Below, piece by piece: positions 2 to 38,473 of a stretch of 58,288 nucleotides of DNA (its first letter is position 1; every line of letters starts with the position of its first letter). Below the pieces are notes generated by a model. It searched no databases. It was not told the DNA's origin and saw only the letters and a list, made by a program, of their open reading frames with translations. The stretch is from assembly GCA_045579745.1 (NCBI GenBank), contig JAZNMQ010000002.1:1-58288 (forward strand), given 5' to 3'. A program made the translations under genes and the position numbers. The DNA is from Candidatus Flemingiibacterium sp. (GTDB taxonomy: Bacteria; Bacillota; Clostridia; Oscillospirales; CAG-272).

Positions 2-94
2 GCTGAAGGTTCTGCGAATTTTCCGAAAGGTTACCACGAATTTGTGCGCGCTCTCGATGCAATGCTCGCAGAGCAAGAAACCGGTCATAAATAA
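2..94 (+). CDS. 3' end of a hypothetical protein gene truncated by the window edge
   Basis: Open frame AEGSANFPKGYHEFVRALDAMLAEQETGHK-stop followed by hairpins at 111-175; no start in window. Confidence 0.5.
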   Translation, partial: AEGSANFPKGYHEFVRALDAMLAEQETGHK

Positions 95-175: not shown

Positions 176-224
176 AGAAAATTCTTCAACCTAAACATAA
201 ATCATGAATAAGGAGGCATATACA

Positions 225-662
225 ATGCGTTATGTTGGAAAATGGGTCTTTCACTCGATTGGTATAGTGGCGGATTCTGATAAAATGATCTATCTCAGTA
301 CCGAGGACTATCTGAAATCTCCAATGCCATATATCGATGAAACAGACGAAGAAGCAGTCGCCGATGAATTACGGGAGAGAAAATCCATGATCGGAATGCA
401 GATCGAGATCTGCGAAGACGGAAAGCTGTATATGCTGATGCCGCTTCCGCAGGGTGCCACCAAAGAGGAAGTCGATGCGGCTGTTGCCTCCGGTGAGATA
501 AGCATGCGCGGAGGTATGATGGCGAATGGTCCAGAATCGTGGGAAGAACGTGACGGTGTGCTGTGGTATACGACCGAACTCAGTGAGGACGGGTGGACAA
601 AAGGTTCAGACGATGACGGCTTTATTTTCTTCATGACTGTCCGATTTGTAAAAGCCGAATGA
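225..662 (+). CDS. Hypothetical acidic cytoplasmic protein
   Basis: ORF 204..662; AGGAGG at 211-216 favours ATG 225; no recognisable family. Confidence 0.8.
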   Translation: MRYVGKWVFHSIGIVADSDKMIYLSTEDYLKSPMPYIDETDEEAVADELRERKSMIGMQIEICEDGKLYMLMPLPQGATKEEVDAAVASGEISMRGGMMANGPESWEERDGVLWYTTELSEDGWTKGSDDDGFIFFMTVRFVKAE

Positions 663-1103: not shown

Positions 1104-1143
1104 CGGTCGGATTTATAGAATACACAGACAAGGAGTGAGGCAA

Positions 1144-2229
1144 TTGGCAGTTTTGCAGGAATACAAATGCCCCTGCTGCGGCGGTGCGATCGCCTTTGTC
1201 AGCGGGCTTCAGAAAATGAAATGCCCCTATTGTGATACAGAATTTGAAATGGAAACGCTGGTTTCTTATGATGATGCGCTGAAGACAGATCAGGCGGATC
1301 AAATGAAGTGGGAAACAGAGGCAGGCGGTGATTGGCAGTCAGGCGAATCGGAGGGCTTGCGCGTTTACGTCTGCAAATCCTGCGGCGGCGAGATCGTTAC
1401 AGACGAAACCACAGGTGCTTCTTCCTGTCCGTACTGTGATAATCCGATTGTGATGATGGGGCAGTTTGCCGGTGCATTGAAGCCGGATTATGTGATTCCG
1501 TTCAAGCTTGACAAAAAAGCCGCCATTGCCGCACTGAATAGGCATTATGGCGGAAAAAAGCTGCTTCCGAAAGTATTCAAGGATCAGAATCATATCGAAG
1601 AAGTCAAGGGAATATACGTTCCCGTGTGGCTGTTTGACGCGGATGCTCACGCGCAGATTCGTTACAAAGGGACCAAAACCCGTACATGGAGCGACAGCCG
1701 GTACTATTATACAGAAGTAAGCCACTATCTGATCAGTCGAAGCGGGTCGGTCGGCTTCGAGCGTATTCCCGTGGATGGTTCCTCCAAAATGGATGATACC
1801 TTGATGGAATCCATCGAGCCGTATCGCTTTTCGGATGCCATAGAGTTTCAAACTGCATATCTGGCAGGCTTTCTTGCAGATAAATACGATGTGGATGCAG
1901 AGACAAGCATTGAACGGGCAAACGAGCGCATTAAAAAGAGTACCGAGGATGCTTTTGCAAAAACGGTAAACGGTTATAACAGTGTTGTTCCGGAGAACAC
2001 CTCGGTCCAGCTTGAAAACGGTCATGCAAAATATGCGCTGTATCCGGTTTGGCTTCTGAACACCGCTTGGAAGGGCAAAAAATATACATTCGCCATGAAC
2101 GGGCAGACCGGCAAGCTGGTCGGCGATCTTCCTCTTGATAAAGCGGCGGCAGGACGGCTGCAGTTCGGACTTACCGCACTGATTACCGCTGCAGCGTTTG
2201 CACTGTCGTGGCTGATCTGGCTTATATAA
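1144..2229 (+). CDS. Double zinc-ribbon protein with C-terminal transmembrane helix
   Basis: CPCCGG...CPYC and CKSCGG...CPYC ribbons, YVPVWLF and FAMNGQTGK motifs, hydrophobic C-terminus; RBS AGGAG 1131-1135 favours TTG 1144. Confidence 0.85.
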   Translation: MAVLQEYKCPCCGGAIAFVSGLQKMKCPYCDTEFEMETLVSYDDALKTDQADQMKWETEAGGDWQSGESEGLRVYVCKSCGGEIVTDETTGASSCPYCDNPIVMMGQFAGALKPDYVIPFKLDKKAAIAALNRHYGGKKLLPKVFKDQNHIEEVKGIYVPVWLFDADAHAQIRYKGTKTRTWSDSRYYYTEVSHYLISRSGSVGFERIPVDGSSKMDDTLMESIEPYRFSDAIEFQTAYLAGFLADKYDVDAETSIERANERIKKSTEDAFAKTVNGYNSVVPENTSVQLENGHAKYALYPVWLLNTAWKGKKYTFAMNGQTGKLVGDLPLDKAAAGRLQFGLTALITAAAFALSWLIWLI

Positions 2230-2241
2230 GGAGGCAGCAGA

Positions 2242-3036
2242 ATGAAAAAATATTTATACATCATGCTTGCAATCGTTCTTCTGTTTGCCGTAAGTGTATT
2301 GCCGGTTACGGCTGAGAATTCCTATCCTCGCCTGACCGATGATGCGGATGTGCTTACCGATGTGGAAGAAGCTGAAATTCTCGAAATACTTGACAAGACA
2401 AGTACGAATCATCATGTCGATATCATAATTTGTACCGTTCCGTCCATCGGAGCACATTCTGCGGCGGAATATACCGACAATCTGTTTGAAGAACGGTTTT
2501 ACGGAATGGGCGATGACCGAAGCTGTGTTCTGCTGCTGGTCAGTATGGAGTACAGCGATTGGCATATTACCACCGCCGGTTACGGAATTACAGCCTTTAC
2601 TGACGTGGGCATTGACTATATCGGAGAACAGATCGTTTCGATGATGTCGGATGGGGATTTTGCCGATGCCTTTTTGGAATATGCTTCGATTTGCGATCGA
2701 TTCCTTGATATGGCGCGAAGCGGCAATCCATTTGATGCGGATGATCTTCCGAAAGAACCTTTTCCTGTTGTGCGGAATCTGATTATATGTCTTCTCATTG
2801 GCACAATTGCCGCATGGATTCTGACGGGAAAGAAGAAAGCAGAGCTGATTTCCGTGAAAAAGCAAAACGCGGCAAAGAATTATATCAGAGGTGACAGCCT
2901 TAAAGTGATCGAATCCAAAGACCTCTTCCTTTATAAGACACTTACGAAAAGTGAAAAATCGGGCAGTTCGGAGTCTTCATCGACACATACCACGAAGTCC
3001 GGAACGACTGTCGGGGGCGGAGGCGGTAAATTCTGA
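2242..3036 (+). CDS. TPM (TLP18.3/Psb32/MOLO-1) domain membrane protein
   Basis: Signal peptide, RLTDDADVLT start of TPM fold, TM helix, Ser/Gly-rich tail ending GGGGGKF. Confidence 0.85.
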   Translation: MKKYLYIMLAIVLLFAVSVLPVTAENSYPRLTDDADVLTDVEEAEILEILDKTSTNHHVDIIICTVPSIGAHSAAEYTDNLFEERFYGMGDDRSCVLLLVSMEYSDWHITTAGYGITAFTDVGIDYIGEQIVSMMSDGDFADAFLEYASICDRFLDMARSGNPFDADDLPKEPFPVVRNLIICLLIGTIAAWILTGKKKAELISVKKQNAAKNYIRGDSLKVIESKDLFLYKTLTKSEKSGSSESSSTHTTKSGTTVGGGGGKF

Positions 3037-3060
3037 CAGGTACTATGAAAGGAAGATAAG

Positions 3061-6000
3061 ATGAATCAAAAAATGAAACGGATATGGAGTTTGTTGCTCT
3101 GTTTATTGCTGCTGATCAGCACAAATTTCGGCCATTTACAGCAAGATCACATACATAGTCTCACGGAGCCGAAGGATGCTCAGGACGATCATGAACACGA
3201 ACAGCTATCTAACGATACGCCGGATTTGCTGTATATTTGTGAAAATGTCCTCGAATTTGCCCTTTCGATTTTTGCAGTTCCTGTATCTGCCGCATACGAA
3301 GACGGCGTGGAGTGTGAGCACTGCGGTGGCTGGCGCTACGACGACTGGCTGTGTGAAAACGGCGATCACTGCGGTGAAGGTTCTGGCACTTCCTGTTATG
3401 AGGAGCACCACTGCGGCTACTGCGGTGCCTGCGATGACGATCATGAGATGTGTGACGACTGCGGCAACTGTCTTGAAGATCATTGCGAATGCGAAGATAA
3501 ATGCCGCGGATGCTATGAGATGGGAGAAACGGTCTGTTCGGATTGCGGTGAGAAATGCTCCGGTTGTGACTGGATCTGTGATGACTGCGGAAGATGTACC
3601 GAATGTATCGGTGATACCCTGTATTGCTCCCACTGCGATGTCTGCATTGAATGTGCAGATTGGGTCTGCTACTGCGGTGACGGATGCAATCTGTGCGCAG
3701 TAGGATGTCCGGACTGTCGTGAGGTCTGTTCCGCCTGTGAGCCTGATGCGCTCTGTGATTACTGTTTCCACTGCTTTGACTGCCTTGGCGGCGAGGGTAA
3801 CTACTGTTCAGACTGCCGTCTGTGCATCAACTGTGTGGACGCGGTTTGCTACTGTGGCGGCGGATGCTCCGAATGTACGCTGATCTGTAAGGAATGCAAT
3901 GAAAAATGCGAAAACTGTGCAGACGGCGGTATCTGCGGGGACTGCGGAACCTGCGCGGATTGTGCAGGAGAATTTTGTGTTGGCTGTGAGGTCTGCATCA
4001 ATTGTGTCGATTGGATATGCTACTGCGGAGAAGGATGCTTCCAATGCGAGGTCAGCTGTCCGGACTGCCGTGAGGTATGCTCTGCGTGTGATCTTGATGC
4101 ACTGTGCAGTAGCTGCTATTATTGCTTTGATTGCCGCGGCGGTGAAGGAGATTACTGCCCTGATTGCGGACTTTGTATTGAATGCGTGGATATGGTGTGC
4201 GCTTGCGGTACAGGATGCTCCGAGTGCGTGCTCATCTGTACAGACTGTGAGGATAAATGCGAAAACTGTGCGGACGGCGGCATCTGCGAGGACTGCGGCA
4301 CCTGCTATGACTGTGTGGGCGGTGACGGCAACTTCTGCATCAACTGCAATAAATGCAAAAACTGTGTGGATGCGGTCTGTTCTTCCTGTGGGGAGGGCTG
4401 CTCGGAGTGTACGGAGCTTTGCCCCGAATGCAATGAAAAATGCATGAACTGTGCAGACGATCAAATCTGCAGCGAATGCGGTGTCTGCTTCGACTGTGTT
4501 GGCGGCGATGGAAACTACTGCGCAGAATGCGGTGTGTGCAAGAACTGCGCCGAGATGGTTTGCTACTGCGGAAACGGCTGCTCAGACTGTGCGATCATTT
4601 GCCCCGATTGTCAGGAAAAGTGTGAAAACTGTGCCGATGACGAGCTGTGCGGTGAATGTGGTGTCTGCTTCGATTGTGTCGGAGGAGACGGCAATTACTG
4701 CGCGGAATGCGGAATCTGTAAAAACTGCGTCGATGCTGTCTGCATTTGCGGCGGTGGATGCTCGGACTGCGCAGATATCTGTCCTGAATGCGCTGAAAAA
4801 TGTGAAAACTGTGCCGATGATGAGCTGTGTACTGACTGTGGCATCTGCAAGGACTGCGTAGGCGAAGAAAACTTCTGTGCCGACTGCGGAGTTTGCTACA
4901 ACTGTGTCGATATGGTCTGTGTCTGCGGCGGCGGATGCTCGAACTGCACTGTAATCTGCGAGGAATGCGGGGAGAAGTGCTTAAACTGCTCCGACGGTGA
5001 GCTTTGCACAGAATGCGGCATTTGCGTTGACTGTGCCGGTTCGGACAGTTTCTGTATCATATGCGGACTTTGCTCTGATTGCGGCATCGTCTGTCCCTGC
5101 GGCGAGGGATGCGAAAACTGTGCAGATATCTGTCCGGACTGTGGTGAGAAATGCTCCTCCTGCTGTGACGAATTTTGTGCGTCCTGCGATATTTGCCGTG
5201 AATGTGCAGGCGACTTATACTGCGAGGATTGCGGTCAATGCGGTGACTGTACGGAAATCTGCGAGGAATGCGGCATCGTTTGTGCGGACTGTGCGGAGTC
5301 CGTGTGTGAAGACTGCGGCAAATGCTCGGGATGTATCGATGAATTCTGCCCTGACTGCGGCATTTGCATCGACTGTGCCGACAGTATGTGCCGGGACTGC
5401 TATTATTGCGGCGACTGTGCGGATAACCTTTGCACAGACTGTGGTGAATACTGCTCTGACTGCGCCGGATTCTGTGAGGAATGCGGAAAATGCGAAAACT
5501 GCGTGGAAATCTGCCCCGATTGCGAACTGTGTAAGGAGTGCTGTGCCGAAAGTGCAGAGAATCTCGGCTGCGATCACGGAATCTGTCCGGAAAGCGCAGA
5601 ATGGAAAAACCATTACTGCACGGAAGGTGGGCACTGCGTAGGCAAATCAAGCAAAATTGAGTACGATGAGGATGAGCACTGGACGAACTGCGGCGACGGC
5701 TGCGATAAACGACTGAACTCGGAGTTGCATACCTTCGGTAAAGGTGAGATCACAAAAGAAGCAACGACGAAGGCGGACGGTGTGATGACGTTTGCCTGCA
5801 CGGTCTGCAGTTTTGAAAAAGAAGAAGCCGTTCCCAAGCTGACTGCTGGACATACGCACGAATATACGGATGTCGTAACACAACCGACGTGTGAATCGGG
5901 CGGATATACAACGCATACCTGCGAATGCGGACACACATATATGGATAATCAGACGTCAGCGGTGAAGCACGATTATCGGCCCAGATATACCGATACGGAG

Positions 6001-6774
6001 CACTGGACTGAATGTACCTTCTGTAATGAAGCCACGGATAAGACTGCACACAAGCTCGGTGAATGGAAAACGACCGTGAAGGCAGGCTATACCTTTGCGG
6101 GTGAGAAACAGCGCGCGTGCAAGATTTGCGAATATACAGTATGTGAAACTATTCCCGTTTTGATCGTGCCGGAAAACAAATATGTGGTAATCATTCCGGA
6201 TTACCCGATAACAGATGAAACACCCTCTATTGAAGTGGGCGACACAAATAACGATTCCGAAACTGAGTCACCGACAGTCAGCCCCCAACCCGATTCAGGC
6301 AGTGAGTCACCGGAGTCAAAGAATCCCTCTGCGACCACTACCAAGGAGCTGTTAAGCAAAGGCACCGACAATACTGTCCCCGCACTGCCCACACTTCCTC
6401 CTACCGAAGACGGAAACATATTCGAGGGATGGGTTGATAAGACAACAGGTGAACCGGTGAAAAAAGGCGATAAGCTCACGGGAAACATAGAAATTGAGCC
6501 CGTCTGGAAGGACTGCGGTGAGGACAAGCACGCCGATGCAGACAAGGATAATCACTGCGACGAATGCGGATACATCATCGTGAAAGAAGTGAAGCCGGAG
6601 GAGACAACGGCACCTGCCGAGGATATAGCATCTGACACCGGACATGAGGATGAAAAAACACCGAAGGATACTGACGGTACACCGAGTTGGATGATTATCG
6701 TTATTTCGTGCTTCGGCGGCGTGATTGCAATATGCGGCACCCTATTGGCTGTTTTCCTGAAGAAAAAGAAATGA
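3061..6774 (+). CDS. Giant cysteine-rich repeat surface protein (signal peptide, ~48 four-Cys blocks, His/Cys modules, C-terminal TM anchor + KKKK)
   Basis: 1237-aa ORF with RBS GAAAGGAAG; about 220 Cys by hand count; TM 6688-6759 then KKKK-stop; function unknown. Confidence 0.93.
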   Translation: MNQKMKRIWSLLLCLLLLISTNFGHLQQDHIHSLTEPKDAQDDHEHEQLSNDTPDLLYICENVLEFALSIFAVPVSAAYEDGVECEHCGGWRYDDWLCENGDHCGEGSGTSCYEEHHCGYCGACDDDHEMCDDCGNCLEDHCECEDKCRGCYEMGETVCSDCGEKCSGCDWICDDCGRCTECIGDTLYCSHCDVCIECADWVCYCGDGCNLCAVGCPDCREVCSACEPDALCDYCFHCFDCLGGEGNYCSDCRLCINCVDAVCYCGGGCSECTLICKECNEKCENCADGGICGDCGTCADCAGEFCVGCEVCINCVDWICYCGEGCFQCEVSCPDCREVCSACDLDALCSSCYYCFDCRGGEGDYCPDCGLCIECVDMVCACGTGCSECVLICTDCEDKCENCADGGICEDCGTCYDCVGGDGNFCINCNKCKNCVDAVCSSCGEGCSECTELCPECNEKCMNCADDQICSECGVCFDCVGGDGNYCAECGVCKNCAEMVCYCGNGCSDCAIICPDCQEKCENCADDELCGECGVCFDCVGGDGNYCAECGICKNCVDAVCICGGGCSDCADICPECAEKCENCADDELCTDCGICKDCVGEENFCADCGVCYNCVDMVCVCGGGCSNCTVICEECGEKCLNCSDGELCTECGICVDCAGSDSFCIICGLCSDCGIVCPCGEGCENCADICPDCGEKCSSCCDEFCASCDICRECAGDLYCEDCGQCGDCTEICEECGIVCADCAESVCEDCGKCSGCIDEFCPDCGICIDCADSMCRDCYYCGDCADNLCTDCGEYCSDCAGFCEECGKCENCVEICPDCELCKECCAESAENLGCDHGICPESAEWKNHYCTEGGHCVGKSSKIEYDEDEHWTNCGDGCDKRLNSELHTFGKGEITKEATTKADGVMTFACTVCSFEKEEAVPKLTAGHTHEYTDVVTQPTCESGGYTTHTCECGHTYMDNQTSAVKHDYRPRYTDTEHWTECTFCNEATDKTAHKLGEWKTTVKAGYTFAGEKQRACKICEYTVCETIPVLIVPENKYVVIIPDYPITDETPSIEVGDTNNDSETESPTVSPQPDSGSESPESKNPSATTTKELLSKGTDNTVPALPTLPPTEDGNIFEGWVDKTTGEPVKKGDKLTGNIEIEPVWKDCGEDKHADADKDNHCDECGYIIVKEVKPEETTAPAEDIASDTGHEDEKTPKDTDGTPSWMIIVISCFGGVIAICGTLLAVFLKKKK
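3667..5250 (+). repeat. Nine imperfect intragenic ~180-nt (60-aa, 16-Cys) tandem repeats
   Basis: Units start at 3667, 3847, 4018, 4198, 4378, 4561, 4741, 4918, 5092; consensus CxCGxGCxxC-x3-CxxCxxxCxxC-x5-CxxCxxCxxC-x4-7-CxxCxxCxxC-x4. Confidence 0.9.
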
Positions 6775-6897: not shown

Positions 6898-6950
6898 AAA
6901 CCACACGGAATTCTTCAAAATCAGTAAAGAATTCCGTGTGGTTTCATTTT
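6898..6950 (+). terminator. Rho-independent terminator (18-bp perfect stem) after the Cys-rich gene
   Basis: AAACCACACGGAATTCTT-11nt-AAGAATTCCGTGTGGTTT followed by CATTTT. Confidence 0.75.
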
Positions 6951-7102
6951 CCTATTCGGTTTGTGTTATTTCTCCGATAAGGCTATCACGCTTTGTCCGT
7001 ACTCCTTTTCTCACGCTTGCCATGCAAGATACCGTGTGTTTGCGCTATCGGGCGATGACAGCGTACACCTCTTTCAAAGAGGTGTAGCATCTAAATCTGG
7101 AC

Positions 7103-7139: not shown

Positions 7140-8210
7140 TTATCTATACTTGTCTAAAACTGCTTTGTAATCAGGGTTCTTCAGAAGCTCTGCTCGTCTA
7201 CCGCCTGCAGCGTTAGCGCAATAATCAAGATTGAATTTAAGAAGATTCTCCCGCGCAGCGTCAGAATAGCGGTCAAACACGTGATTCAAGGCTTCATTCT
7301 TTTTTCTCAATTCTTCAAGCTTTTTGGTTGCATACAGATTTTTATCCATAACTTCTATGATCTGCTCGTCTGTCCCGCCTCGGTAGCATAGATCATTTTC
7401 CATTCGTCCAAGAAACGACTTTGCCATCATAAGGAAGAACGCTTCGCCGGTTTCCTCAAATGCGGATAACATCAAGTCACCATAATGCAATGCACGCTCA
7501 GCCTTTTCTGCCATCGAAATCATAGGATTAAAGAACACGGTTCTGCCGAGCTTATCAGACGCAAAATCAACAAGCTCAAACATATTCTTTTGAACATGGA
7601 AATAGTATTCGCTTGTATCCTTGGCAAACAATTGCTCGGTCTTTTGCCCGCAGGTCGTGAACCAATCGGTGAATTTAGTTTTGTAAATTTCAAGTGCATC
7701 TTCTGTTTTACCTTCTGCGTGGAGAATTTTCGCACGCATATTCCATGCATTGAGTCGCAAATTTTCCTCGGTGCAACCCTCCAATATCTTTTCGCAGATA
7801 GCAAGGAATTCATCCTTGTGTGCAATCAGAACGGCCGGATCGTTGTCAGCCATATCGCCACCGATATTCCACATATAGTAGTGCATTATAAAGTAATCAT
7901 TCGGATAATCATGATATGCTTTAACGATGATCTCACGCCCCTTTTTGTCATTCCAATTCTTTCTGTACAGAGCAATTACCTCGTCGATCTCTGCTTGTAT
8001 CTTTTCTTGATTGTAACCCATAAGCTCATCAAGAGTTACGCCGAAATAATACGCCAAGGGTTGCAGAAGCGTAATATCAGGATATGTTTCGCCTCTTTCC
8101 CACTTACTGACTGCCGCGCAGGTAACATTCATTGCAACCGAAAGCTGTTCCTGAGTAATGTTTTTAGCAGAGCGCAAACGCTTAATGTTTGCACCGATAT
8201 TCATTTCCAT
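7140..8210 (-). CDS. XRE-family helix-turn-helix transcriptional regulator with helical (TPR-like) C-terminal domain
   Basis: IGANIKRLR...ITQEQLS...AVSKWERGETYPDI...LAYYFGVTLDELMG; RBS AAGGAG. Confidence 0.9.
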   Translation of the reverse strand: MEMNIGANIKRLRSAKNITQEQLSVAMNVTCAAVSKWERGETYPDITLLQPLAYYFGVTLDELMGYNQEKIQAEIDEVIALYRKNWNDKKGREIIVKAYHDYPNDYFIMHYYMWNIGGDMADNDPAVLIAHKDEFLAICEKILEGCTEENLRLNAWNMRAKILHAEGKTEDALEIYKTKFTDWFTTCGQKTEQLFAKDTSEYYFHVQKNMFELVDFASDKLGRTVFFNPMISMAEKAERALHYGDLMLSAFEETGEAFFLMMAKSFLGRMENDLCYRGGTDEQIIEVMDKNLYATKKLEELRKKNEALNHVFDRYSDAARENLLKFNLDYCANAAGGRRAELLKNPDYKAVLDKYR

Positions 8211-17312: not shown

Positions 17313-17379
17313 GATATTGATGAAGTCTTGTGCGGCTTCATCAATATTTCATTAATACTACGAAAGAATATTGTGTATT

Positions 17380-19293
17380 ATGACGAACATTCCTGAATAT
17401 TACGCCGGTCAAGCTGATGTTTGCGTTATTGGCGCAGGGCATGCCGGCATTGAAGCTGCACTCGCAGCGGCGCGCCTCGGTTTTTCCACAATACTGTTCA
17501 CAATCAATCTTGACGCTGTTGGAAATATGCCGTGCAACCCCTCTATCGGCGGAACCGGCAAAGGACATTTGGTATACGAAATCGACGCACTCGGCGGCGA
17601 AATGGGCAGAGCGGCTGACAAGGTTATGCTTCAAAGCAGAGTATTGAATCTCGGCAAGGGCGCGGCAGTCCACTCCAAGCGAATACAGGCAGATCGCGCT
17701 GAATACAAGCGAATAATGAAGCAAACCATCGAAAATACCCCTAATCTCCGACTTATTCAGGCTGAGATAACCGACATCCGTACAACTCAAATCGACGGCA
17801 TTAAGCGTGTCTGCGCTGTAATAACCAATTTGGGCGCAAGATGGGACTGCAAGGCGGCGATAATCTGCTCGGGTACATATCTTCGCGGCAAGGTCATCGT
17901 CGGCGAGGTTTCCTACAGCTCGGGGCCTGACGGAATGCTGCCGGCAAATGAGCTGACAGCAAATCTTGAGCGCGAGGGCATCACAATGATGCGCTTCAAG
18001 ACCGGAACTCCGGCGAGAGTTCATCGCAACTCCATCGATTATTCAAGGCTTGAAATTCAGCCCGGCGATAATGAGGTTGACCCATTTTCTGTCGATTCAG
18101 ACAGAGAAAAACTAAACAATGCCGAACAGCTTCCCTGCTATATCGTATACACAAATAAGAACACACATGAAATCATTCGCTCAAACATGTCAAGATCTCC
18201 GCTATATTCAGGCATGATTGAGGGAATCGGCCCGCGCTATTGTCCAAGCATTGAGGATAAGGTCATGCGCTTTGCCGATAAGGAACGCCATCAGCTCTTC
18301 ATCGAGCCGATGGGACGCGACACAAATGAAATGTACATTCAAGGCTTTTCTTCGTCGCTTCCTGAGGAGATTCAGATGCAGATGCTTCATTCCCTCCCCG
18401 GATTTGAGAATGCACAGGTAATGCGCACAGCTTACGCCATCGAATATGACTGCATTGACCCCACACAGCTCTACTCCACACTTGAGTTTAAAGAGATATC
18501 GGGGCTTTACGGCGCAGGGCAATTCAACGGAACCTCCGGCTATGAGGAAGCCGCCGCACAAGGTCTTGTCGCAGGTATAAATGCCGCACTGAAGCTTCGC
18601 GGTGACGAGCCGATGACTCTCTCACGACAGAGCTCATATATAGGTACTCTGATTGATGACCTCGTTACCAAAGGCACAAAAGAGCCCTATCGCATCATGA
18701 CATCGCGTTCTGAATACCGACTGCTGATACGGCAGGATAATGCCGCCGAGCGTCTTACCCCTATCGGAAGACGGGTTGGACTTATTTCCGATGAGCGTTG
18801 GAGCGCATTCGAGCTTGAGCAAGCACAGATAAAGGCTGAGATCAAGCGACTTGAATCCACCACCATTCCGCCGAGCAAGGAGCTTTCCGATATTCTTAGC
18901 GCCAATGCGTCAGCACCGATTACCACGGGCATTCGTATTGTCGAGCTGATAAAACGCCCTGAGCTCTCATATGATAAGCTGGCATGCGTTGACACATCTC
19001 GTCCCGAGCTTCCCATTCGTGTTCGGGTTCAGGTTGAAACCAACATCAAATATGCCGGTTATATTAAGCGTCAGCTTTCCGATGTTGCACGAACAGCGAA
19101 GCTCGAAGAAAAGAAGCTGCCGAGCTCCTTTGATTACAGCCAGATCAAGGGAATCAGAATCGAAGCCGTACAGAAGCTCAACAAGATTCAGCCTCTGAAT
19201 ATCGGTCAAGCTTCGCGTATAAGCGGCATCTCTCCCGCTGATATATCCGTTCTGCTAATTTATTTTTCTAACCACAAGGAAAAGGAGCAATAA
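17380..19293 (+). CDS. mnmG: tRNA uridine 5-carboxymethylaminomethyl modification enzyme MnmG (GidA)
   Basis: [55 protein letters not shown]. Confidence 0.98.
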
Positions 19294-27018: not shown

Positions 27019-28413
27019 TTATTTTCCAACGCAGAAGCGATGGAAGATTCCGTCAACGATCTCCTCAGATACCTTTCTGCCATCCAGCTCGCCGAGCTCT
27101 GACAAAGCCGTTTCAATATCAAAGCCATACATGTCGGTAGAAAGCCCACTCCTTAAATGAAGCATAGCATTTCTGACAGCATCAAGCGCGCGGCTAACAG
27201 AAGCGTTTTGACGAGCGTTTGTCAGAACAGCTTGACTGTTATAATCGATTTCACCCTTTATGTATAGTTCTTCAACAGTCTTTATAAGTTTATCTATACC
27301 GCTTTCACTGCCTCTGAGCGAGCAAATATTGATAATTTCGCAAAAAGCTCCCGAGCTGCGAAGCAATTCAACATCAAGCCTCTCGTTTAAATCACATTTG
27401 TTGAGAATCGCTATCTTTACACACGGCAAAGCCTTCAGCTTTTCAAGAAGCTCAAGGTCTTCATTATCAAAAGCATCCGAGCTGTCAAACACTGCCAAAA
27501 CAAGCTCTGCGCGCTCAAGCATTTCAAGCGAACGGCGCACGCCGATCTGTTCGACGATATCAGAGGTTTCGTGAATGCCTGCCGTATCGCATAGGCGAAG
27601 CAATACCCTACCGCATGATACCGTTTCTTCAATTGTATCGCGTGTGGTGCCTGCAACATCGGTCACAATGGCTCTATCCGAGCCTACAAGAAGATTAAGA
27701 AGCGAAGACTTGCCGACATTAGGCTTTCCGACAATTACCGCGCGTATGCCCTCACAGACAGCTCTTCCAACACGATAGGACGCCTTTAGCCCTGAAAGTT
27801 CACTTTCAATAAGCGAAAGCTCCGCTAAAACCTCGTCATCTGATAGCTCCGCAAGATCTTCATCCGGGAAGTCAACATTTGCATACATTCCCGTAACGAC
27901 AGTTTTAAGCCTTTCATAAAGCTCGTCCGCTTTATCGCGAACAACACCTCGTTCATGGGAAATAGCCAGAGAAAGCTGTTCCTCGCTCTGTGCATCAATA
28001 AGCATTCCAACCGCCTCTGCCTGAGAGAGCGATAGCTTTCCGTTTGTAAAAGCTCTTCGAGTAAACTCACCTGCGGTTGCCTGAACAGCCCCACATTCAA
28101 ATAAGGCCTCTAAGACCTTTTGCGTGAGCAGTATTCCGCCGTGACAGCTTATTTCAACAACATCCTCACCCGTATATGATTTGGGTGCACGAAAAACCGT
28201 GCACATACCATCATCAATTTGCACGCCGTTCTTTATAATACGACCATATACGCATTGACCGTGCTCCTGCATAGTAAGTGATTTGCCATTTGAAGCTCGA
28301 AAGCATCTGTCGGCTATCTCTACGGCTTCATCTCCCGAAATGCGAATAACGGCGATACCGCCTCGGCCGTATGCCGTTGAAATAGCGGCGATGGTATTGG
28401 TTCTATACACCAT
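27019..28413 (-). CDS. mnmE: tRNA modification GTPase MnmE (TrmE)
   Basis: TIAAIST..GRGGIAVIRISG, GKPNVGKSSLLN, GTTRD, DTAG, NKCD, FCVGK. Confidence 0.98.
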   Translation of the reverse strand: MVYRTNTIAAISTAYGRGGIAVIRISGDEAVEIADRCFRASNGKSLTMQEHGQCVYGRIIKNGVQIDDGMCTVFRAPKSYTGEDVVEISCHGGILLTQKVLEALFECGAVQATAGEFTRRAFTNGKLSLSQAEAVGMLIDAQSEEQLSLAISHERGVVRDKADELYERLKTVVTGMYANVDFPDEDLAELSDDEVLAELSLIESELSGLKASYRVGRAVCEGIRAVIVGKPNVGKSSLLNLLVGSDRAIVTDVAGTTRDTIEETVSCGRVLLRLCDTAGIHETSDIVEQIGVRRSLEMLERAELVLAVFDSSDAFDNEDLELLEKLKALPCVKIAILNKCDLNERLDVELLRSSGAFCEIINICSLRGSESGIDKLIKTVEELYIKGEIDYNSQAVLTNARQNASVSRALDAVRNAMLHLRSGLSTDMYGFDIETALSELGELDGRKVSEEIVDGIFHRFCVGK

Positions 28414-28444
28414 TGCGTATAAAAACTCCTTTGAAATTGATATT

Positions 28445-28474
28445 AAAAAGCGCGTCGGTATGCACCAACGCGCT
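28445..28474 (-). terminator. Terminator-like hairpin between jag and mnmE
   Basis: AGCGCGTTGGT-GCAT-ACCGACGCGCT followed by T-tract on the minus strand. Confidence 0.6.
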
Positions 28475-28503
28475 CAATTCTTGATTTAAATCAAGGGGTA
28501 AAT

Positions 28504-29424
28504 TCAATTTGATGAATCGTCGCTGTTTCCTAACAGGCTGTTGATGTATTCATCAAAATCCTTGAATTTTTTCGGTTGCTCGCGCTGAGGTTTTTCCTTT
28601 GAACCGTATGTGGAAATAAGGTCGGATAGTTCCTCGGCTGACATCTTCTCGCCATCATCATAAAGAGGAGCTGACGGTTTTGCATCCTTTGCGGAATTTT
28701 TGAAATCCTTGCGTTTGTCGTGTCTTGACGGTCTTGATGAACGTCTTGATTCAGACTTTTCTTTTTTTCCTGCCGGGACACTGAAGCCCTCACTTTCGAG
28801 GAAAATAACAACGCGGCGATTTGAGTCAATGCCTACCGAATTTGTGGAAACGCCCTCAATTCCCTGAACCTCGGAATGTATGATTCTTCTTTCATAAGGC
28901 GACATGGGCTCAAGCATAATGCTCTTTTTGTTCTTATTTACCTTTGAAGCCATTCTGCGTGCAAGTGCACGGAGTGTCTGCTCACGCTTAGCGCGGTAGT
29001 TTTCAACGTCAACCGTGATATGAACATAATCGCGTGACTCATCCTCTTCCCTTTTGTTAGCTGCAAGATTAGTCAGATACTGAAGCGCCTCAAGTGTATC
29101 TCCGTGATGTCCGATAAGAGCGCCTGCCTCATCTCCGATAATGTTGATAATACGGTCGTTTTTCTTAGAGTTGAGCATCTCAACCTTAGCGTTGATTTCC
29201 ATGTTGGAGAGCAAATTCTCAACAAATTCCTTTGCCACAATATCTCCGCCAATAACGCGCTCTACCTTTATTTTTGCCGGCTCAGCACCGAGCCCGAGAA
29301 AACCGGATTTTTCGCGTTCGATAACCTCATAGCTGAGCTTATCCACTTCAATTCCGAGCTTCTCTGCAGCATCCTGCAGGGCAAGCTCAACGGTTTTTCC
29401 TGTAAAAATCAGTTCTTGTTTCAC
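28504..29424 (-). CDS. jag: RNA-binding protein Jag/EloR/KhpB (Jag_N, KH, R3H)
   Basis: FTGKTVELAL, GFLGLG, LIGHHGDTLEALQYL, PMSPYERRIIH. Confidence 0.93.
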   Translation of the reverse strand: MKQELIFTGKTVELALQDAAEKLGIEVDKLSYEVIEREKSGFLGLGAEPAKIKVERVIGGDIVAKEFVENLLSNMEINAKVEMLNSKKNDRIINIIGDEAGALIGHHGDTLEALQYLTNLAANKREEDESRDYVHITVDVENYRAKREQTLRALARRMASKVNKNKKSIMLEPMSPYERRIIHSEVQGIEGVSTNSVGIDSNRRVVIFLESEGFSVPAGKKEKSESRRSSRPSRHDKRKDFKNSAKDAKPSAPLYDDGEKMSAEELSDLISTYGSKEKPQREQPKKFKDFDEYINSLLGNSDDSSN

Positions 29425-29468
29425 AGTTTTGCTGTTTCCTTTCGAAATTTAACAAACCAAGCAGCTGA

Positions 29469-30620
29469 TTATTCAGCCTTATCCTCGGTATCTTTGTCAT
29501 CATTATTTTTGTGTCTATCGTTATCATCATCCTTCAGCTTCGGAGCTTCGTCGGGAGAAACGCCTTCTTTAAGAGTAGGCTTTTGCTCAACCTTTTTTTC
29601 CTCGGATTCAGGAGTTTCATAGTCGTCTTCGTCAATACGATGAAGAGATCTTACCTTTTTCTTTTGCTGCTTTTTTGACAGCGGCTTTAAATTAGCTTCA
29701 CGCTCAGCAGCCTTGTAGTCTTCCTCGGTGAAATGAGGAATTGGAATAAGCTTTGACAAAATAATCTGCTGTATAACGCCAAGAATATTACGGTAAATCC
29801 AGTAAAGACCGATTGCAGCCGCAATTGTAAAGGTAATGTATACCGAAAGAAGCGGCATCGAGAAAAGCATAATATTCATAGAAGCATCATTTTTTGTATT
29901 CTGATTGGGATTATAGGTAAATTTACGAGTAATAAATGTGCTTCCGAGAGTTACGATAAGAGTAAGAAGCGGAATCAAAAGCAGTGCGTTGAAATTTTCG
30001 AAGCTCGGGATCATAGAGAGATCCATTGTACCGTTGAATGCGGTAAAATTAGGAAGAATTTCCTCTGAAATAACCTCTCCGTTTCCGTCCACGAAGTTTG
30101 AAAGACCAAGCTCACGCATTTTTGTGATGAGATCTATCTGACGAACTGCACGGTCTGCAGCAAAGGTCTCAAATCCTGCTGTCTGAGCAGCAGACATAAG
30201 CTCATATACCTTTGCCTGAATAGACGTTACTACCTCTGCGCTGAATCCGCAGATATATTTGAGGGGGTTTACAACAACATTATAAAGTGCAAAGAGAATG
30301 GGCATCTGGATAAGGAGAGGCAAACATCCACCCATGGGATTGTAATTCTCTCTCTGATAAAGCTCCATTATCTCATTGTTGAGCTTTTGCTGAGTTGCCT
30401 GGTCATTTCGTCCCGCATACTTTTTTCTGATTGCCATTTCCTTAGGACGAAGCATTGCCTGCCTAACAGAATTTTTCTGCTGTTTAATTGCAAAAGGCAG
30501 GAGAAGTATCTGAAGTACGACAGCGAATAAAAGCAATGCCACAGCATAGTTTTGAGTCAGCTGATAGCAGATCTTGATAATAAAGCCAAGCGGCACATTG
30601 ATTATATCCCAAATATTCAT
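29469..30620 (-). CDS. yidC: Membrane protein insertase YidC
   Basis: NPMGGCLPLLIQMPIL, GLYWI; origin-region synteny; ATG 30620 preferred to the longer ORF. Confidence 0.93.
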   Translation of the reverse strand: MNIWDIINVPLGFIIKICYQLTQNYAVALLLFAVVLQILLLPFAIKQQKNSVRQAMLRPKEMAIRKKYAGRNDQATQQKLNNEIMELYQRENYNPMGGCLPLLIQMPILFALYNVVVNPLKYICGFSAEVVTSIQAKVYELMSAAQTAGFETFAADRAVRQIDLITKMRELGLSNFVDGNGEVISEEILPNFTAFNGTMDLSMIPSFENFNALLLIPLLTLIVTLGSTFITRKFTYNPNQNTKNDASMNIMLFSMPLLSVYITFTIAAAIGLYWIYRNILGVIQQIILSKLIPIPHFTEEDYKAAEREANLKPLSKKQQKKKVRSLHRIDEDDYETPESEEKKVEQKPTLKEGVSPDEAPKLKDDDNDRHKNNDDKDTEDKAE

Positions 30621-30654
30621 ATTACTATGTAATCTCTCCTTTATATTTACACGG

Positions 30655-30888
30655 CTATTGTTTTCTACGGTTTTTCTTTTCGGGAACAGGGTCATATCCG
30701 CCCTTCCCGAACGGATTGCACCTCAGTACACGCCATACAGTCAGCGCAAAGCCGACAAAAAAGCCTCTCTTTTGAAAAGCTTCAAGTGCATATTGCGAAC
30801 AGGTCGGCTGAAATCTGCAGCAAGGTGCTTTGAGCGGCGAAATATATTTTCTGTAAAGCTTTAATAAAAAAATAGCAACATACTTCAC
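30655..30888 (-). CDS. yidD: Membrane protein insertion efficiency factor YidD
   Basis: YRKYISP...[11 protein letters not shown]...[14 protein letters not shown]. Confidence 0.96.
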
Positions 30889-31262
30889 TTTACAATCATC
30901 CCGAGTCTTTCAAATGCCATAGACATATCCGATGAGACATTCCACGACTTTGCATTTACGATACCTGCTCTTGCAACCAAAACAACAAGAAAGCCCTTTT
31001 TTATATTGCAATTTTTTGATGAGCTGAGATATCCCTCACGAATTATTCTCTTAGCGCGATTTCTGACAACCGCACCGCCGAGCTTTTTTGTTACGGTAAT
31101 ACCAACGCGGTTTACCATCTGACCCGTAGGATTTGCCTTCGCCAATTTTTTAGCCGCATAATCGGGCAATAGGTAAACGACAACATATCTCCCGACGAAT
31201 TTTTTTCCACGGGAATATGCCTTTGAATAAAGATGATTTTCCCTAATGGCACGCAGCTTCAT
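30885..31262 (-). CDS. rnpA: Ribonuclease P protein component
   Basis: [21 protein letters not shown] (RNR motif). Confidence 0.95.
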
Positions 31263-31466
31263 ATTACAATTATTTCCCTTTTTATAAACAAATCAAACAT
31301 TCAGTCCGATATTTTTTATATGACAATAAAAACCCCCGAAATACGGGCTCTATCCCCGACAACTTCGGCGGTTCATGATACGTATAATCATAAAATCCGG
31401 CATACTTCAATACAACCCAATATCAAATACTGGGTTGTATCTCTGTTTGCTTCTTTAAGCAGAAAC

Positions 31467-31601
31467 TTAGTATGTGAGTTTCTTTCTTCCCTTAGCGCGT
31501 CTTCTTTTAAGGACTTTTCTGCCATCAGCAGTTCTCATTCTTTTTCTGAAACCGTGCTCAACCTTTCTCTGACGCTTTTTAGGCTGGTAAGTTCTAAGCA
31601 T
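31467..31601 (-). CDS. rpmH: 50S ribosomal protein L34 (missed by the ORF track)
   Basis: Hand translation [44 protein letters not shown]; RBS AAGGAGGT. Confidence 0.98.
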
Positions 31602-31707
31602 GTATTGACACCTCCTTAAACAGTACAAAGAATCTTGTATAACGGATGCCCACCAAACAAGATGTAATATTTCTAAATGAATATAAATTCACACAGTAAC
31701 AACTAAT

Positions 31708-31737
31708 ATTATACACAATTGAAATACCTTTTGTCAA
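31708..31737 (-). promoter_or_regulatory. Sigma-A promoter of the rpmH operon, overlapped by a DnaA box
   Basis: TTGACA-18nt-TATAAT on minus strand; TTATACACA at 31709-31717. Confidence 0.7.
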
Positions 31738-31855
31738 GGGCTTTTTTAAAAAAACTTCGATATTATCAAAAAAATTTAAAATAAATTTGATTTGATATTT
31801 GGTAAAATTTCTTGTAAACAATTGCATTTTATTTGCTTATTTTTTAATTAAAGAC

Positions 31856-31884
31856 TTGATATTTTTACCGTTTTGTGATATAAT
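31856..31884 (+). promoter_or_regulatory. Sigma-A promoter of dnaA
   Basis: TTGATA-17nt-TATAAT with extended -10 TG. Confidence 0.7.
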
Positions 31885-31952
31885 ATTTTTAAGATATATA
31901 TTAATATGAAATATTTTTACATTCCATTTACTGAAGACGAAAGGAAAAACTT

Positions 31953-33386
31953 ATGCAGCCTTTTAACGATATATGGAATCTTGCACTTGCTGAGCTTCTC
32001 AAGCAGTATGGAAAAACTATTTCCGATTTGTGGTTTACAAGTCTTACTCTTCACGATATAACCGATACAACCGCGGTTATTATTTGTGATATGCCATTCA
32101 AGTACAAGATTTTAAAAAAGCAATACATAAATTCCATAACAGACGCACTTGAAACGGTAATGGGATTCAAGGTGAATGTGGTCATTGTCGATAAAACCAA
32201 CGACCCCGTCGAATACTCAACCTATGTTCAGACACTCGGTGATGTTCCCGAACCGGTTAATCTTGCTGAAATTCCTCAGAATGACACAATGATCGCCGAT
32301 GCTGAAACGCAGAAAAACAATGCTGCTAATTCAACACCAAATGCGTTTCCGACACATCAAAATGAATACACATTTGAAAACTTCATTGTAGGAAGCTCGA
32401 ACAATCTGGCACATGCAGCCTCCGTGGCTGTTGCGAATGATCCAACCTGCCGCGAAAATGCTGATAATTTCACATACAATCCCTTATTTATCTACGGACC
32501 GAGCGGACTTGGAAAAACTCACCTTCTTTATGCTATCATAAATCACATTCGCATCACAAGACCTGAAATGAAGATAGTGTATGTCAAGGGTGAGGAATTT
32601 ACAAATCAGCTTGTTGACAGCATCAGTAAAAAAACACCGGAGCAATTTCGCGAAAAATACAGAAAAGCTGATATTCTTCTTATTGACGACGTTCAGTTTA
32701 TTGCAGGACGCGAAGCTACGCAGGAAGAATTTTTCCACACGTTTAACGCACTCTATGAAGACCATAAGCAGATCATTCTGACATCAGACCGTCCGCCAAG
32801 AGATATAAAAACTCTCGAGGACAGACTTAAAACAAGATTCGAATGGGGAATTACCGCAGATATTCAACCGCCGGATGCAGATCTTCGTGCGGCAATACTC
32901 AAAAAGAAGGCTGCGTCAATGAATATTCAGCTTTCAAATGAGGTTGTTAATTTCCTTGCCGAACATCTAAAGAGTAATATCCGTCAGGTTGAGGGTGCAA
33001 TAAAAAAGCTTGGTGCTCTCAGCATATTAACCGGAGCTCCAATTACCATTGAGCTTGCTAAAAATTCAATCTCAGACCTTATGACAGGAGGAGAATCTGA
33101 GGGAGTAACCGTAGAAAAAATACTTGATAAGGTTGCGAAGAAATTCGGTATTTCTGTAGAAGATATCAAGGGAACAAAACGAACCAAGGAAATCGCATAT
33201 GCCCGTCATATTTCTATTTTCCTGATCCGCAAGCTTACAGATATGTCACTTCCGAAGATAGGAAAGCTTTTGAAACGAGATCATTCAACAATTCTATCTT
33301 CGCTCAAAACAGTTGAAAGAGAGCTTGGCGGAAGTACACAGACAGATGCTGATGTAAATGAGCTTATGAAAGAGATAAAATCGTAA
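31953..33386 (+). CDS. dnaA: Chromosomal replication initiator DnaA
   Basis: YTFENFIVG, YNPLFIYGPSGLGKTHLL, LLIDDVQF, QEEFFHTFN, RDHST. Confidence 0.99.
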   Translation: MQPFNDIWNLALAELLKQYGKTISDLWFTSLTLHDITDTTAVIICDMPFKYKILKKQYINSITDALETVMGFKVNVVIVDKTNDPVEYSTYVQTLGDVPEPVNLAEIPQNDTMIADAETQKNNAANSTPNAFPTHQNEYTFENFIVGSSNNLAHAASVAVANDPTCRENADNFTYNPLFIYGPSGLGKTHLLYAIINHIRITRPEMKIVYVKGEEFTNQLVDSISKKTPEQFREKYRKADILLIDDVQFIAGREATQEEFFHTFNALYEDHKQIILTSDRPPRDIKTLEDRLKTRFEWGITADIQPPDADLRAAILKKKAASMNIQLSNEVVNFLAEHLKSNIRQVEGAIKKLGALSILTGAPITIELAKNSISDLMTGGESEGVTVEKILDKVAKKFGISVEDIKGTKRTKEIAYARHISIFLIRKLTDMSLPKIGKLLKRDHSTILSSLKTVERELGGSTQTDADVNELMKEIKS

Positions 33387-33830
33387 TTCAACATGCTCGT
33401 CTGAATTTTCAACATGTTGTTATCAGGTATGTGGAAAACTATGTTTAAACTTGTATTTTTTCTTTTATTTTCTTAGTTTTTTTACTTGTTAGAAATAATG
33501 TAAATACGGTGAATTTTACTTTTATTCTACACAAGAAATAAAATTATTATCCACAAGAAAAAATTTGCAGTTATTTTTCTAAACATGTTTTTTAACATAC
33601 TAACAGATTTTTTTCAACATTCTCAAACATAAATCGATATATCCAGTTTATCAAGAAATTTTCTCCACAGCAAATAAACTTAAATTCAACATGAAAATTT
33701 CACATTGATATTCAAATTTTTACAGAAATTATGCCTATAATTTCATTTTCAACATAAGTAACAGGCCCTAATACTACGACTATTATTATTATATATTTTT
33801 TATTTTTATTATATAAAATAACCACGTTTC
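33387..33830. other. Replication origin oriC (dnaA-dnaN intergenic region)
   Basis: TTATCCACA 33547-33555, TGTGGAAAA 33430, TTCTCCACA 33661, tandem degenerate boxes 33746-33763, GGCCC, DnaA-trio run TAATACTACGACTATTATTATTA 33769-33791, AT-rich tract. Confidence 0.92.
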
Positions 33831-33890
33831 AAACCAAGCCTAAAAAGGCAGAAAGGACGCCTTCGCTAAAGCGGAGGCTAAGGAAAAAAC

Positions 33891-35027
33891 ATGAAGGTAA
33901 AATTCAGCCGCCCTATATTACTCGACGCTGTCGGAACAGCAATGTATAGCGTTTCATCTAAAAACACGATATCCGCAGTTGAATGTATTTTAATTAACTG
34001 TGAAGAGGATAAGGTAATTATCTCATCATACGACCTTGAAAAAGGAATGAGAATCGAAATCGATGCGGAGATTGAAGAAACCGGCTCGTGCCTTATTAAC
34101 GCACAAAGCTTCTATTCGATTATAAAATTGATGCCTGCAGGTATTATTGAGCTGGCATCATCTGATACATGGAGAACTAAAATTTCAAGCGGAAACTCGG
34201 AATTTGAGCTCAACGGCTTGAACCCAAGCGATTTTCCGACCCTGCCTGATATTGAAAATGAAAACAGCTTTACTATTAAACAGGGCGATATGAAAAATAT
34301 GATAGCTCAAACGCTTTTTGCTGTAGCGCAAAACGATGCAAGACCTACCTTCAACGGTGCTTACTTCAAGATGAAGGGCAATCATATTACAACGGTTGGT
34401 TGTGATGGATTCAGACTTGCAATCAGAGAAAAAGTTTGCGAGCTTCAAAATGCAAATGAGGATCTTGACGTTTCATTTATAATTCCGGGCAGAACGCTGA
34501 ATGAGATCCTGAAGCTGTTAAACGAGCCTGAGGAAACTGTAAATATCATTTTGAACCGTAAACAGGTTCTATTCCGCTTTGAAGAAAAAAATATTACATT
34601 CTTCTCCCGTCTTATTGAAGGAGAGTATATAGATTACGATCGTATTATTCCCAAAAACAGCACAATATTTGTAGATGTTGATACGGATATTTTTGCAAGC
34701 GCGGTTGAGCGCGCGGCTCTTGTAACCGATGATTCCTCAGGAAAGAACAAATCACTTGCGCGCTGCTTCTTCCACGATAATAAGCTTGAAATAACATCCG
34801 TTTCCGTAAATGGAAAGGTACGCGATGAAATATCGACCTCTCAAACCGGCGCAGATATTGAAATCGGCTTTAACTGCCGTTATCTTACTGATGCGCTGAA
34901 GGCTTCAATGTGTGATAAGCTTCATCTTTCGCTTTCATCACCTTATATCAGTATGGTTATTGAGCCGCTTGAAAATGACGAAAAGGACCACTTCATATTC
35001 CTCGTTCTTCCGTGTAAAATGAAATGA
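33891..35027 (+). CDS. dnaN: DNA polymerase III beta sliding clamp
   Basis: DFPTLP, CDGFRLA, FFSRLIEGEYIDY, IGFNCRYL; synteny. Confidence 0.97.
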   Translation: MKVKFSRPILLDAVGTAMYSVSSKNTISAVECILINCEEDKVIISSYDLEKGMRIEIDAEIEETGSCLINAQSFYSIIKLMPAGIIELASSDTWRTKISSGNSEFELNGLNPSDFPTLPDIENENSFTIKQGDMKNMIAQTLFAVAQNDARPTFNGAYFKMKGNHITTVGCDGFRLAIREKVCELQNANEDLDVSFIIPGRTLNEILKLLNEPEETVNIILNRKQVLFRFEEKNITFFSRLIEGEYIDYDRIIPKNSTIFVDVDTDIFASAVERAALVTDDSSGKNKSLARCFFHDNKLEITSVSVNGKVRDEISTSQTGADIEIGFNCRYLTDALKASMCDKLHLSLSSPYISMVIEPLENDEKDHFIFLVLPCKMK

Positions 35028-36166: not shown

Positions 36167-36167
36167 A

Positions 36168-36508: not shown

Positions 36509-38473
<1,965 letters not shown>

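Follow-up and report, generated by a model that had tools for sequence, protein, structure and literature searches.

The stretch of DNA considered here, hereafter the window, comprises 58,288 nucleotides of contig JAZNMQ010000002.1 from Candidatus Flemingiibacterium sp. (Clostridia; Oscillospirales; CAG-272) and carries a gene for an exported protein of 1237 residues, 224 of which are Cys (18.1%; 3061..6774, coordinates being those of the window on the + strand unless marked otherwise). This Cys-rich protein belongs to a real, conserved family and is tentatively read as a wall-spanning stalk of metal-stapled tetracysteine modules, the metal probably being Zn, that carries a conserved N-terminal head. 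The protein would be exported by Sec and held by a C-terminal transmembrane (TM) helix, leaving a KKKK tail inside the cell. About 745 residues outside the cell would fold as a rigid, nearly core-less rod of ~47-50 tetracysteine mini-modules, in each of which, most probably, a single metal ion bound through thiolates and acquired after export serves as the staple. Zn2+ would be the most probable ion, with Fe2+ possible in rubredoxin-type sites. Together with a Cys/His stalk and a Pro/Thr linker, the rod would carry the Cys/His-rich head (residues 78-172), the likely ligand-binding end, away from the wall.

Anatomy of the Cys-rich protein

Cysteine is concentrated in an array between 3313 and 5544 (residues 85-828), where it makes up 201 of 744 residues (27%), and each 60-residue window from residue 121 to 840 contains 16-18 Cys. 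A regular-expression search counts 47 non-overlapping four-Cys blocks which together hold 190 Cys (24 CxxCxxCxxC, 12 CxxCxxxCxxC, 9 CxCxxxCxxC and 2 ending in CC), and CxxC accounts for 119 of the 223 Cys gaps of the protein. The protein contains no LPxTG sortase motif, and none of its 119 CxxC is a CxxCH haem-attachment motif. These figures agree closely with a preliminary description of the gene, made from the sequence without database searches, which had reported about 220 Cys in ~48 tandem four-Cys blocks, an array of ~740 residues with 16 Cys per 60 residues, and the lack of LPxTG and CxxCH. The Sec-type leader, stalk, single TM helix and KKKK tail that it listed are likewise all seen in the sequence or its hydropathy profile. 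Such a composition is no chance effect and lies far beyond the range of the genome: in a crude set of 1728 open reading frames (ORFs) of at least 100 residues from the source genome, the median Cys content is 1.6%, the next most Cys-rich ORF has 30 Cys, and this single gene supplies 224 of the 10,646 Cys in the set. The 124 other leader-bearing ORFs of the genome hold 573 Cys between them, with a median of 0.9%. Moreover, the reading frame and the Cys columns are preserved at 27 loci of other genomes.

Two features absent from the preliminary description are the conserved head and a 60-residue, 16-Cys super-repeat. The head (residues 78-172, 3292..3576; YEDGVECEHCGGWRYDDW...CYEEHHC...) is the end farthest from the anchor and shows the highest non-Cys identity in three of five orthologue comparisons (63-75%). 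It is confined to this family (24 matches), is retained in a distant relative (locus L031) and has no match in Pfam or PDB. The super-repeat is assembled from a basic module of four Cys in ~15 residues, four modules forming a unit. Nine tandem units of 57-61 residues occupy 3577..5175; every unit consists of four four-Cys blocks, 16 Cys in all, and the repetition is visible in the DNA as a 180-bp period at 74% match. A tenth, degenerate unit, which gives weaker unit-profile matches, is followed by simple modules of 13-15 residues (xxCGxCxxCx(3-4)C) ending in CC (5176..5544), so that blocks reach residue 828. An alignment of the ten tandem units (57-61 residues) has 16 invariant Cys, and CxxCG and CPxC knuckle motifs recur in the units. 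The ligand set of each site may be either the compact CxxCxxCxxC or the offset C-x2-C-x2-C-x(3-7)-C; the sequence is compatible with either.

Ahead of the head, the Sec-type leader (about residues 1-25, 3061..3135; MNQKMKRIWSLLLCLLLLIS) has K4, K6 and R7 in its n-region, then a hydrophobic core (hydropathy window 8-26), and the leader (MNQKMKRIW...) contains no twin arginine. A lipoprotein reading was rejected because the leader Cys has no preceding lipobox and is not conserved among relatives. A His/acid-rich stretch and a second, weakly hydrophobic segment ending ...PVSA/AYEDG follow (residues 26-77, 3136..3291). This is the least conserved part of the protein (30-44% identity to orthologues); it may represent a pro-region that is cleaved off, or else contain another site of processing. 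Relatives with an SLH anchor have a short HxH stretch ahead of an AxA-like site in its place.

Beyond the array, Cys/His stalk modules (residues 836-1040, 5566..6180) are recognised in the alignment by invariant H, W and C columns. They show conserved patterns, among them H-W-x2-C-x2/3-C-x8-H and C-x2-C...H-x-H, which recall metal sites of the C2H2 type; the stalk has no match in Pfam or PDB. A weak, paralogous stalk-module match (E 7e-4) occurs in the same genome in L002 (contig C72, 9972-11909), an exported BspA-type leucine-rich-repeat surface protein of 645 residues and 30 Cys; Clostridial surface proteins thus seem to have this as yet unnamed Cys/His stalk module in common. Automatic annotation of Atlas neighbours includes the names 'C2H2-type zinc finger' and 'CTCHY-type'. 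A Pro/Thr/Ser/acid-rich linker (residues 1041-1205) embeds a segment resembling the Listeria-Bacteroides repeat (Flg_new; residues 1104-1143, 6370..6489), a weak match at 15.8 bits against a cut-off of 27, and the closest Atlas clusters are Bacillota surface proteins with Flg_new. The TM helix (residues 1209-1233, hydropathy peak 2.49), the sole strongly hydrophobic stretch of the C-terminus, and the cytoplasmic KKKK tail (residues 1234-1237) complete the protein (6685..6771).

Family, anchors and repeat evolution

A near-length search returned 260 relatives at E <=0.001 among 1786 candidates. Among the best 120 of these 260, the TM-anchored layout is common to the first 22 (54-72% identical), SLH domains occur in 96 of the other 98, and the only name given by the sources is "hypothetical protein". 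When longer proteins were searched with a profile of the repeat unit, 218 proteins were found, all of this same family, including two (P0124 and P0125) in which three CWB2 repeats replace the TM helix. On renewed scanning, CWB2 was again seen in P0124, and SLH in P0024, P0025 and the ORF of L031; a Pfam scan shows both SLH (PF00395) and CWB2 (PF04122) to be absent from the window's own protein. Three kinds of anchor (TM helix, SLH and CWB2) are therefore used in the family, each of them C-terminal. Since wall-binding anchors are swapped for the TM helix at the C-terminus, the array must lie outside the cell, with the N-terminal head at its far end, and the earlier proposal of export and tethering outside the membrane is strengthened accordingly.

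The relatives come almost entirely from one family of uncultured gut Clostridia (Oscillospiraceae in the record titles). The 27 loci from representative genomes are all in metagenome-assembled genomes (MAGs), labelled Oscillospiraceae, Candidatus Flemingiibacterium, Eubacteriales or Clostridia, with one Lachnospiraceae and one Anaerotruncus, and the sources, where named, are ruminant, deer and human guts. Within the window's family, 18 of 301 genomes, belonging to 14 of 97 genera, are positive for the unit profile, as are two of the five genomes of the window's own genus and one of 398 other genomes sampled across the class (two not scored). The gene is present in one copy per genome. An ORF in another family of the class (L031:853-3159, genome G308) has the same head and an SLH anchor, and its array is made of a 28-residue, 8-Cys repeat (CPGCG.ACSEC..VC.NCG.CE.C). 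This shorter repeat suggests that the 60-residue super-repeat arose later, by elaboration of a shorter module.

Conservation within the array is concentrated on Cys. The 1255 units include 524 distinct ones, and in these a Cys content of at least 99% is reached by 14 of the 16 Cys columns. The ninth Cys is displaced by one column in 75 units, all 75 of which have Cys in the adjacent column, and the tenth is replaced in 32 of the 524 (Asn in 25, Glu in 6) with no other Cys lost. Of these 32, 24 hold only 15 Cys; among the other eight, six appear to include the first Cys of the next unit, one to reflect an alignment shift and one to have an extra Cys elsewhere. An even count of 16 Cys is found in 442 of the 524 units. 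Outside the Cys columns, identity to orthologues in the array is 49-62%, compared with 63-75% in the head and with 91-92% for an upstream zinc-ribbon gene in the two closest loci. Near-invariant Cys columns combined with low non-Cys identity indicate that the array keeps its Cys scaffold while its surface drifts.

The number of units also varies, from 8 to 23 per protein when contig-truncated genes are counted and from 11 to 23 in complete genes. Units at the ends are orthologous by position (82-83% non-Cys identity), those in the centre are similar among themselves (up to 77%), and repeats in the window match at 73-77% at the DNA level. The relative P0003 (1297 residues) contains duplicated pairs of units that are identical at the protein level, which implies that change in unit number is ongoing in at least some lineages.

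Predicted fold and chemistry of the modules

Pfam gives nothing over threshold for the whole protein (E up to 1) and only the weak Flg_new match for five separate pieces (E up to 10), and NCBIfam has no match to the protein, in keeping with the earlier claim that no named family covers the repeats. A description of the family was not found in the literature (subscription journals lay outside the coverage). No significant match to PDB sequences was obtained, whether the query was the head, the stalk, the whole protein or a profile of one or two units. The non-significant matches include the structural-Zn lobe of medium-chain alcohol dehydrogenase (E 0.49), the zinc-knuckle region of methionyl-tRNA synthetase (MetRS; 0.36), LIM (0.23), an RNA-polymerase zinc ribbon (E 0.44) and the Fe-S region of a reductive dehalogenase (E 0.44). 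Unit positions 4-18 (CGxCxxCxGGxGN[YF]C) align, also without significance, with the C-x2-C-x2-C-x7-C lobe of the structural Zn(Cys)4 sites in 5vkt and 5tnx. The alcohol-dehydrogenase resemblance did not gain with a richer profile and is kept as a lead.

Structure prediction with AlphaFold2 (AF2) for units 6-7, using 96 in-register two-unit rows, reached a predicted local distance difference test score (pLDDT) of 95.5 and a predicted template modelling score (pTM) of 0.80, the five models of two units ranging from 86.6 to 95.5 in pLDDT. Secondary structure in the model is limited to isolated beta-bridges and, in each unit, one helix of 7 residues. Comparison of the model with PDB structures gave no significant match; Zn fingers make up six of the ten weak fold matches, with FYVE, PHD and RING folds among the matches. 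The two-unit model thus amounts to a confidently predicted, new fold. The high pTM suggests that neighbouring units hold a fixed orientation, as in a rod, and of the surface filament proposed in the preliminary description it is a rod of this kind, formed by a single chain, that is retained. Strict Cys columns, low non-Cys identity and the confident prediction together point to a defined fold rather than a loose sponge. Since the model has almost no secondary structure, cross-links would be needed to hold the fold together.

Iron-sulfur clusters, which the preliminary description had offered as one option, are disfavoured by the Sec-type leader, by the failure to find TatC in the source genome (94.65% complete) and by the lack of any Fer4-family match to the protein at E up to 1 (whole) or 10 (pieces). 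The same library detects five Fer4-type models in the pyruvate:ferredoxin oxidoreductase (PFOR) of the window. Together with the zero count of CxxCH, this upholds the earlier exclusion of multihaem cytochromes and ferredoxin-type proteins. Polyferredoxins and Fer4 dicluster proteins do share many CxxC-type runs with the Cys-rich protein, including some blocks ending in C-P, but the array has double their Cys density and CxxCxxCxxxCP occurs only twice. Improbable, too, is an electron conduit, in which [4Fe-4S] clusters or rubredoxin-type Fe(Cys)4 centres in the modules would let electrons hop outward from the membrane. About 50 four-Cys sites are indeed chained roughly 15 residues apart, the CxxCG and CPxC knuckles are like those of rubredoxin, C-x2-C-x3-C-P occurs eight times, and the reductive-dehalogenase Fe-S region is among the weak PDB matches. 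However, ferredoxins devote about twice as many residues to a cluster as the 15 available here, and a wire of any kind would have to do without a membrane oxidoreductase partner adjoining the gene and to bridge the ~165-residue non-Cys linker between the membrane and the Cys/His stalk and array. Mononuclear Fe(Cys)4 centres can form without assembly machinery and load spontaneously, so a wire made of these is untouched by the Sec/Tat argument. A self-assembling extracellular chain of ~50 redox-active Fe(Cys)4 centres, with electron hopping but neither haem nor Fe-S, is still highly improbable; if it existed, it would give a gut anaerobe a route of extracellular electron transfer that needs no external cofactor machinery.

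Disulfides are the usual cross-link in extracellular Cys-rich repeats of eukaryotes. By analogy, the array could form ~100 disulfides after export and become a protease-resistant cystine ladder, for which the even count of 16 Cys in most units is suitable and which, as a cystine knot, would equally explain the near-absence of secondary structure. This is an unlikely alternative, more so than the metal sponge discussed below. Neither DSBA, Thioredoxin_4, VKOR nor DsbB was found in the source genome or in any of five other carriers tested, and DsbD_TM was not found in the source genome; the hosts are gut anaerobes; and the 32 units that lose a single Cys without its partner would be left with an odd thiol. 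CxxC spacing, moreover, is what metal knuckles typically show and is badly suited to structural disulfides. A sacrificial thiol shield, whose ~220 thiols at the surface would react with oxygen or peroxide and then be regenerated by gut sulfide or cysteine, would make use of a very high surface thiol density on a strict anaerobe and corresponds to the thiol redox buffer of the preliminary description. It is the least probable of the explanations considered and is unsupported, since no CcdA/DsbD-type membrane reductase that could serve as a reductant channel was found in the genome, and a scavenger has no need of near-invariant spacing, which indicates a defined fold, nor of a rigid fold, conserved head or stalk.

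Metal stapling is thus reached by exclusion, with Fe-S clusters and disulfides both disfavoured, and by the resemblance of the CxxCG and CPxC motifs to metal knuckles; metal is further favoured over disulfide because CxxC dominates the gaps and because Zn sites prevail among the best, though non-significant, matches (one is Fe-S). That the array binds dozens of metal ions, as the preliminary description had it, is plausible but unproven. The same arguments would hold equally for an extracellular metallothionein-like sponge, that is, a protein which is not mainly a rod and which captures, stores or detoxifies Zn, Cu, Cd or similar metals at the surface in sulfidic gut contents. With 27% Cys, the array is near metallothionein density, the ectodomain is very acidic (isoelectric point 4.05), a His-rich stretch follows the leader, and this one gene supplies 224 of the Cys counted in the ORF set. 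The sponge is nevertheless unlikely. No metal transporter, metal sensor or efflux gene stands beside the gene in the window or in related loci, Pfam and NCBIfam show no metallothionein match, distribution within the family is patchy (18 of 301 genomes), and the strict spacing, confident predicted fold and apparently fixed unit-unit geometry suit a structural part better, as do the conserved head and the three kinds of anchor. Metallothioneins share the Cys density, the CxC and CxxC spacing and the expected thiolate metal binding; however, they are small, cytosolic and leaderless and have few or no aromatic residues. The Cys-rich protein is long, exported and anchored, has 40 aromatic residues (F/Y/W) in its array and is predicted to keep a fixed fold even in a metal-free model.

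The metal-stapled stalk is accordingly preferred, and its projecting role is inferred from the distal conserved head, the length-variable rod, the linker and the interchangeable anchors. Several points weigh against it. The evidence for any metal is indirect, thiolate sites that lie exposed are readily oxidised and are uncommon in the extracellular space, and the matches to Zn-binding families are all non-significant. The AF2 model is ligand-free, and its Cys may be grouped either in fours or in pairs. An AF2 prediction for three units from full-length homologues aligned in poor register reached a pLDDT of only 47.5 as against 95.5, which indicates that the good model depends on the alignment. 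The absence of Dsb genes from MAGs is compatible with spontaneous or other oxidation. The projecting role would follow from architecture alone, the head having no known ligand, and DNA repeats that are at most 77% identical are unlike those of classical variable-length stalk proteins. Finally, the weak hint of transcription comes from one near-identical contig of 413 nt, which covers 5943-6355 with one mismatch and originates from a gut metatranscriptome library that may contain DNA.

Genomic setting, known counterparts and meaning

The ORF at 3061-6774 is open throughout, is the longest of its neighbourhood and is kept at full length in relatives. A ribosome-binding site (AGGAAG, 3050..3055) lies 5 nt ahead of the ATG, and downstream of the stop codon a terminator-like 18-bp hairpin is followed by the U-tract UCAUUUU (6898..6951; dG -26 kcal/mol, z -7.5). 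Upstream on the same strand are a double zinc-ribbon membrane protein (1135-2229) and, directly adjacent, a TPM-domain membrane protein (2242-3036), whose stop at 3036 leaves a 24-nt gap. This pair (1135-3036) is 91-92% and 74-76% identical in loci L003 and L004. Among the 20 related loci that have upstream sequence, it stands directly upstream of the Cys-rich gene in eight; homologues of two small ORFs of the window (204-662 and 678-1103) take this place in four, and the remaining eight have neither pair, DUF6935 or other surface proteins being found there instead. In other related loci the zinc-ribbon/TPM pair sits elsewhere. The small ORFs (152 and 141 residues) are 57-85% identical in related loci and have no match in Pfam or NCBIfam. 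Neighbours in other loci are often surface proteins, such as an SLH-VWA-Flg_new_2 protein. No conserved partner gene was found beside the gene in the window and related loci, and no radical-SAM or thiol-oxidoreductase gene adjoins it; the idea of a dedicated maturation operon was dropped because no upstream pair is universal among the 20 loci.

Convergent to the Cys-rich gene is a gene for a 356-residue protein with an N-terminal Cro/C1-type helix-turn-helix (7140-8210, -), which has its own GC-rich terminator at 7130-7112. The window also contains the chromosomal origin region (27019-41259), with mnmE, dnaA (31953-33386), gyrB and gyrA, and mnmG at 17371-19293. The Cys-rich gene lies ~25 kb from dnaA, in the core chromosome, with no obvious mobile element. 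PFOR and a BcrAD/BadFG-type activase (46229-49813, -, and 55975-58287, +) are consistent with a strictly anaerobic fermenter. Twenty sequencing runs share a small part of the gene's words (0.21 at most), and in the four runs examined the pieces are mostly 90-95% alike, that is, from relatives; gaps in their coverage and their depth are uninformative. Skip joints near 4301-5314 come from contigs less than 95% alike and do not count as evidence for length variants.

The eukaryotic counterparts nearest in layout are Giardia's variant-specific surface proteins (VSPs), with which the preliminary description had drawn a comparison that stands as far as overall layout and CxxC richness are concerned: both are type-I proteins in which a leader precedes a CxxC-rich ectodomain and a single C-terminal TM helix is followed by a short tail of basic character. 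VSPs have a Cys content of about 12%, so that the array has roughly twice their density. The Cys-rich protein is bacterial, is built of a regular 60-residue super-repeat, is single-copy without a switching gene family, and is not recognised by the VSP model of Pfam (E up to 1). VSPs are defined by a C-terminal CRGKA tail after the TM helix, are reported to bind Zn substoichiometrically and contain CxxCxxxCxxC, a motif considered as a candidate for Zn (PMC2996952). The CRGKA tail is absent here, where the protein ends in KKKK, and the CxxCxxxCxxC motif is present 14 times.

Among bacterial proteins, the periscope and fibrillar adhesins of Gram-positives (SasG, Rib and Sgo_0707) consist of a non-repeat N-terminal domain, a tandem rod array and a C-terminal anchor (PMC8201768). 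The same order is found here, with a head (residues 78-172), an array (residues 173-830) and a TM anchor that is SLH or CWB2 in relatives, and with a repeat number that varies among relatives (8-23 units). These adhesins differ in using beta-sandwich domains of ~80-130 residues instead of metal- or Cys-stapled modules of 15 residues. Periscope proteins are marked by DNA repeats so similar that strains vary in length; here the repeats match at 73-77%, and the unit number differs between species-level relatives. The Cys-rich protein has no sortase motif, and its head has no known adhesin fold.

The conserved CxxC(G)/CPxC knuckles of the protein resemble those of zinc-ribbon and rubredoxin-type sites, and LIM, RING and PHD fingers are among its weak sequence or fold matches, none of which is significant. 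The protein is perhaps best regarded, with some reserve, as a wall- or membrane-anchored repeat stalk built from a new, chemically unusual module with a new predicted fold. If the reading is right, it would add a new fold family, an array of tetrathiolate sites denser than any other we know of, and a second bacterial way to build long surface stalks beside strings of beta-sandwich domains, namely extracellular chains of some fifty metal-held modules of ~15 residues each. Being small and repetitive, and having a confident model, the module may offer a scaffold for metal-binding or nanoscale spacer design. The long-held assumption that Cys is avoided by exported proteins of Gram-positive anaerobes also becomes testable, with 224 Cys in this protein set against 573 in 124 other leader-bearing ORFs. 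For the organisms themselves, it would mean that common uncultured Clostridia of gut and rumen carry on their surface a large, previously unseen sink for Zn (or Fe).

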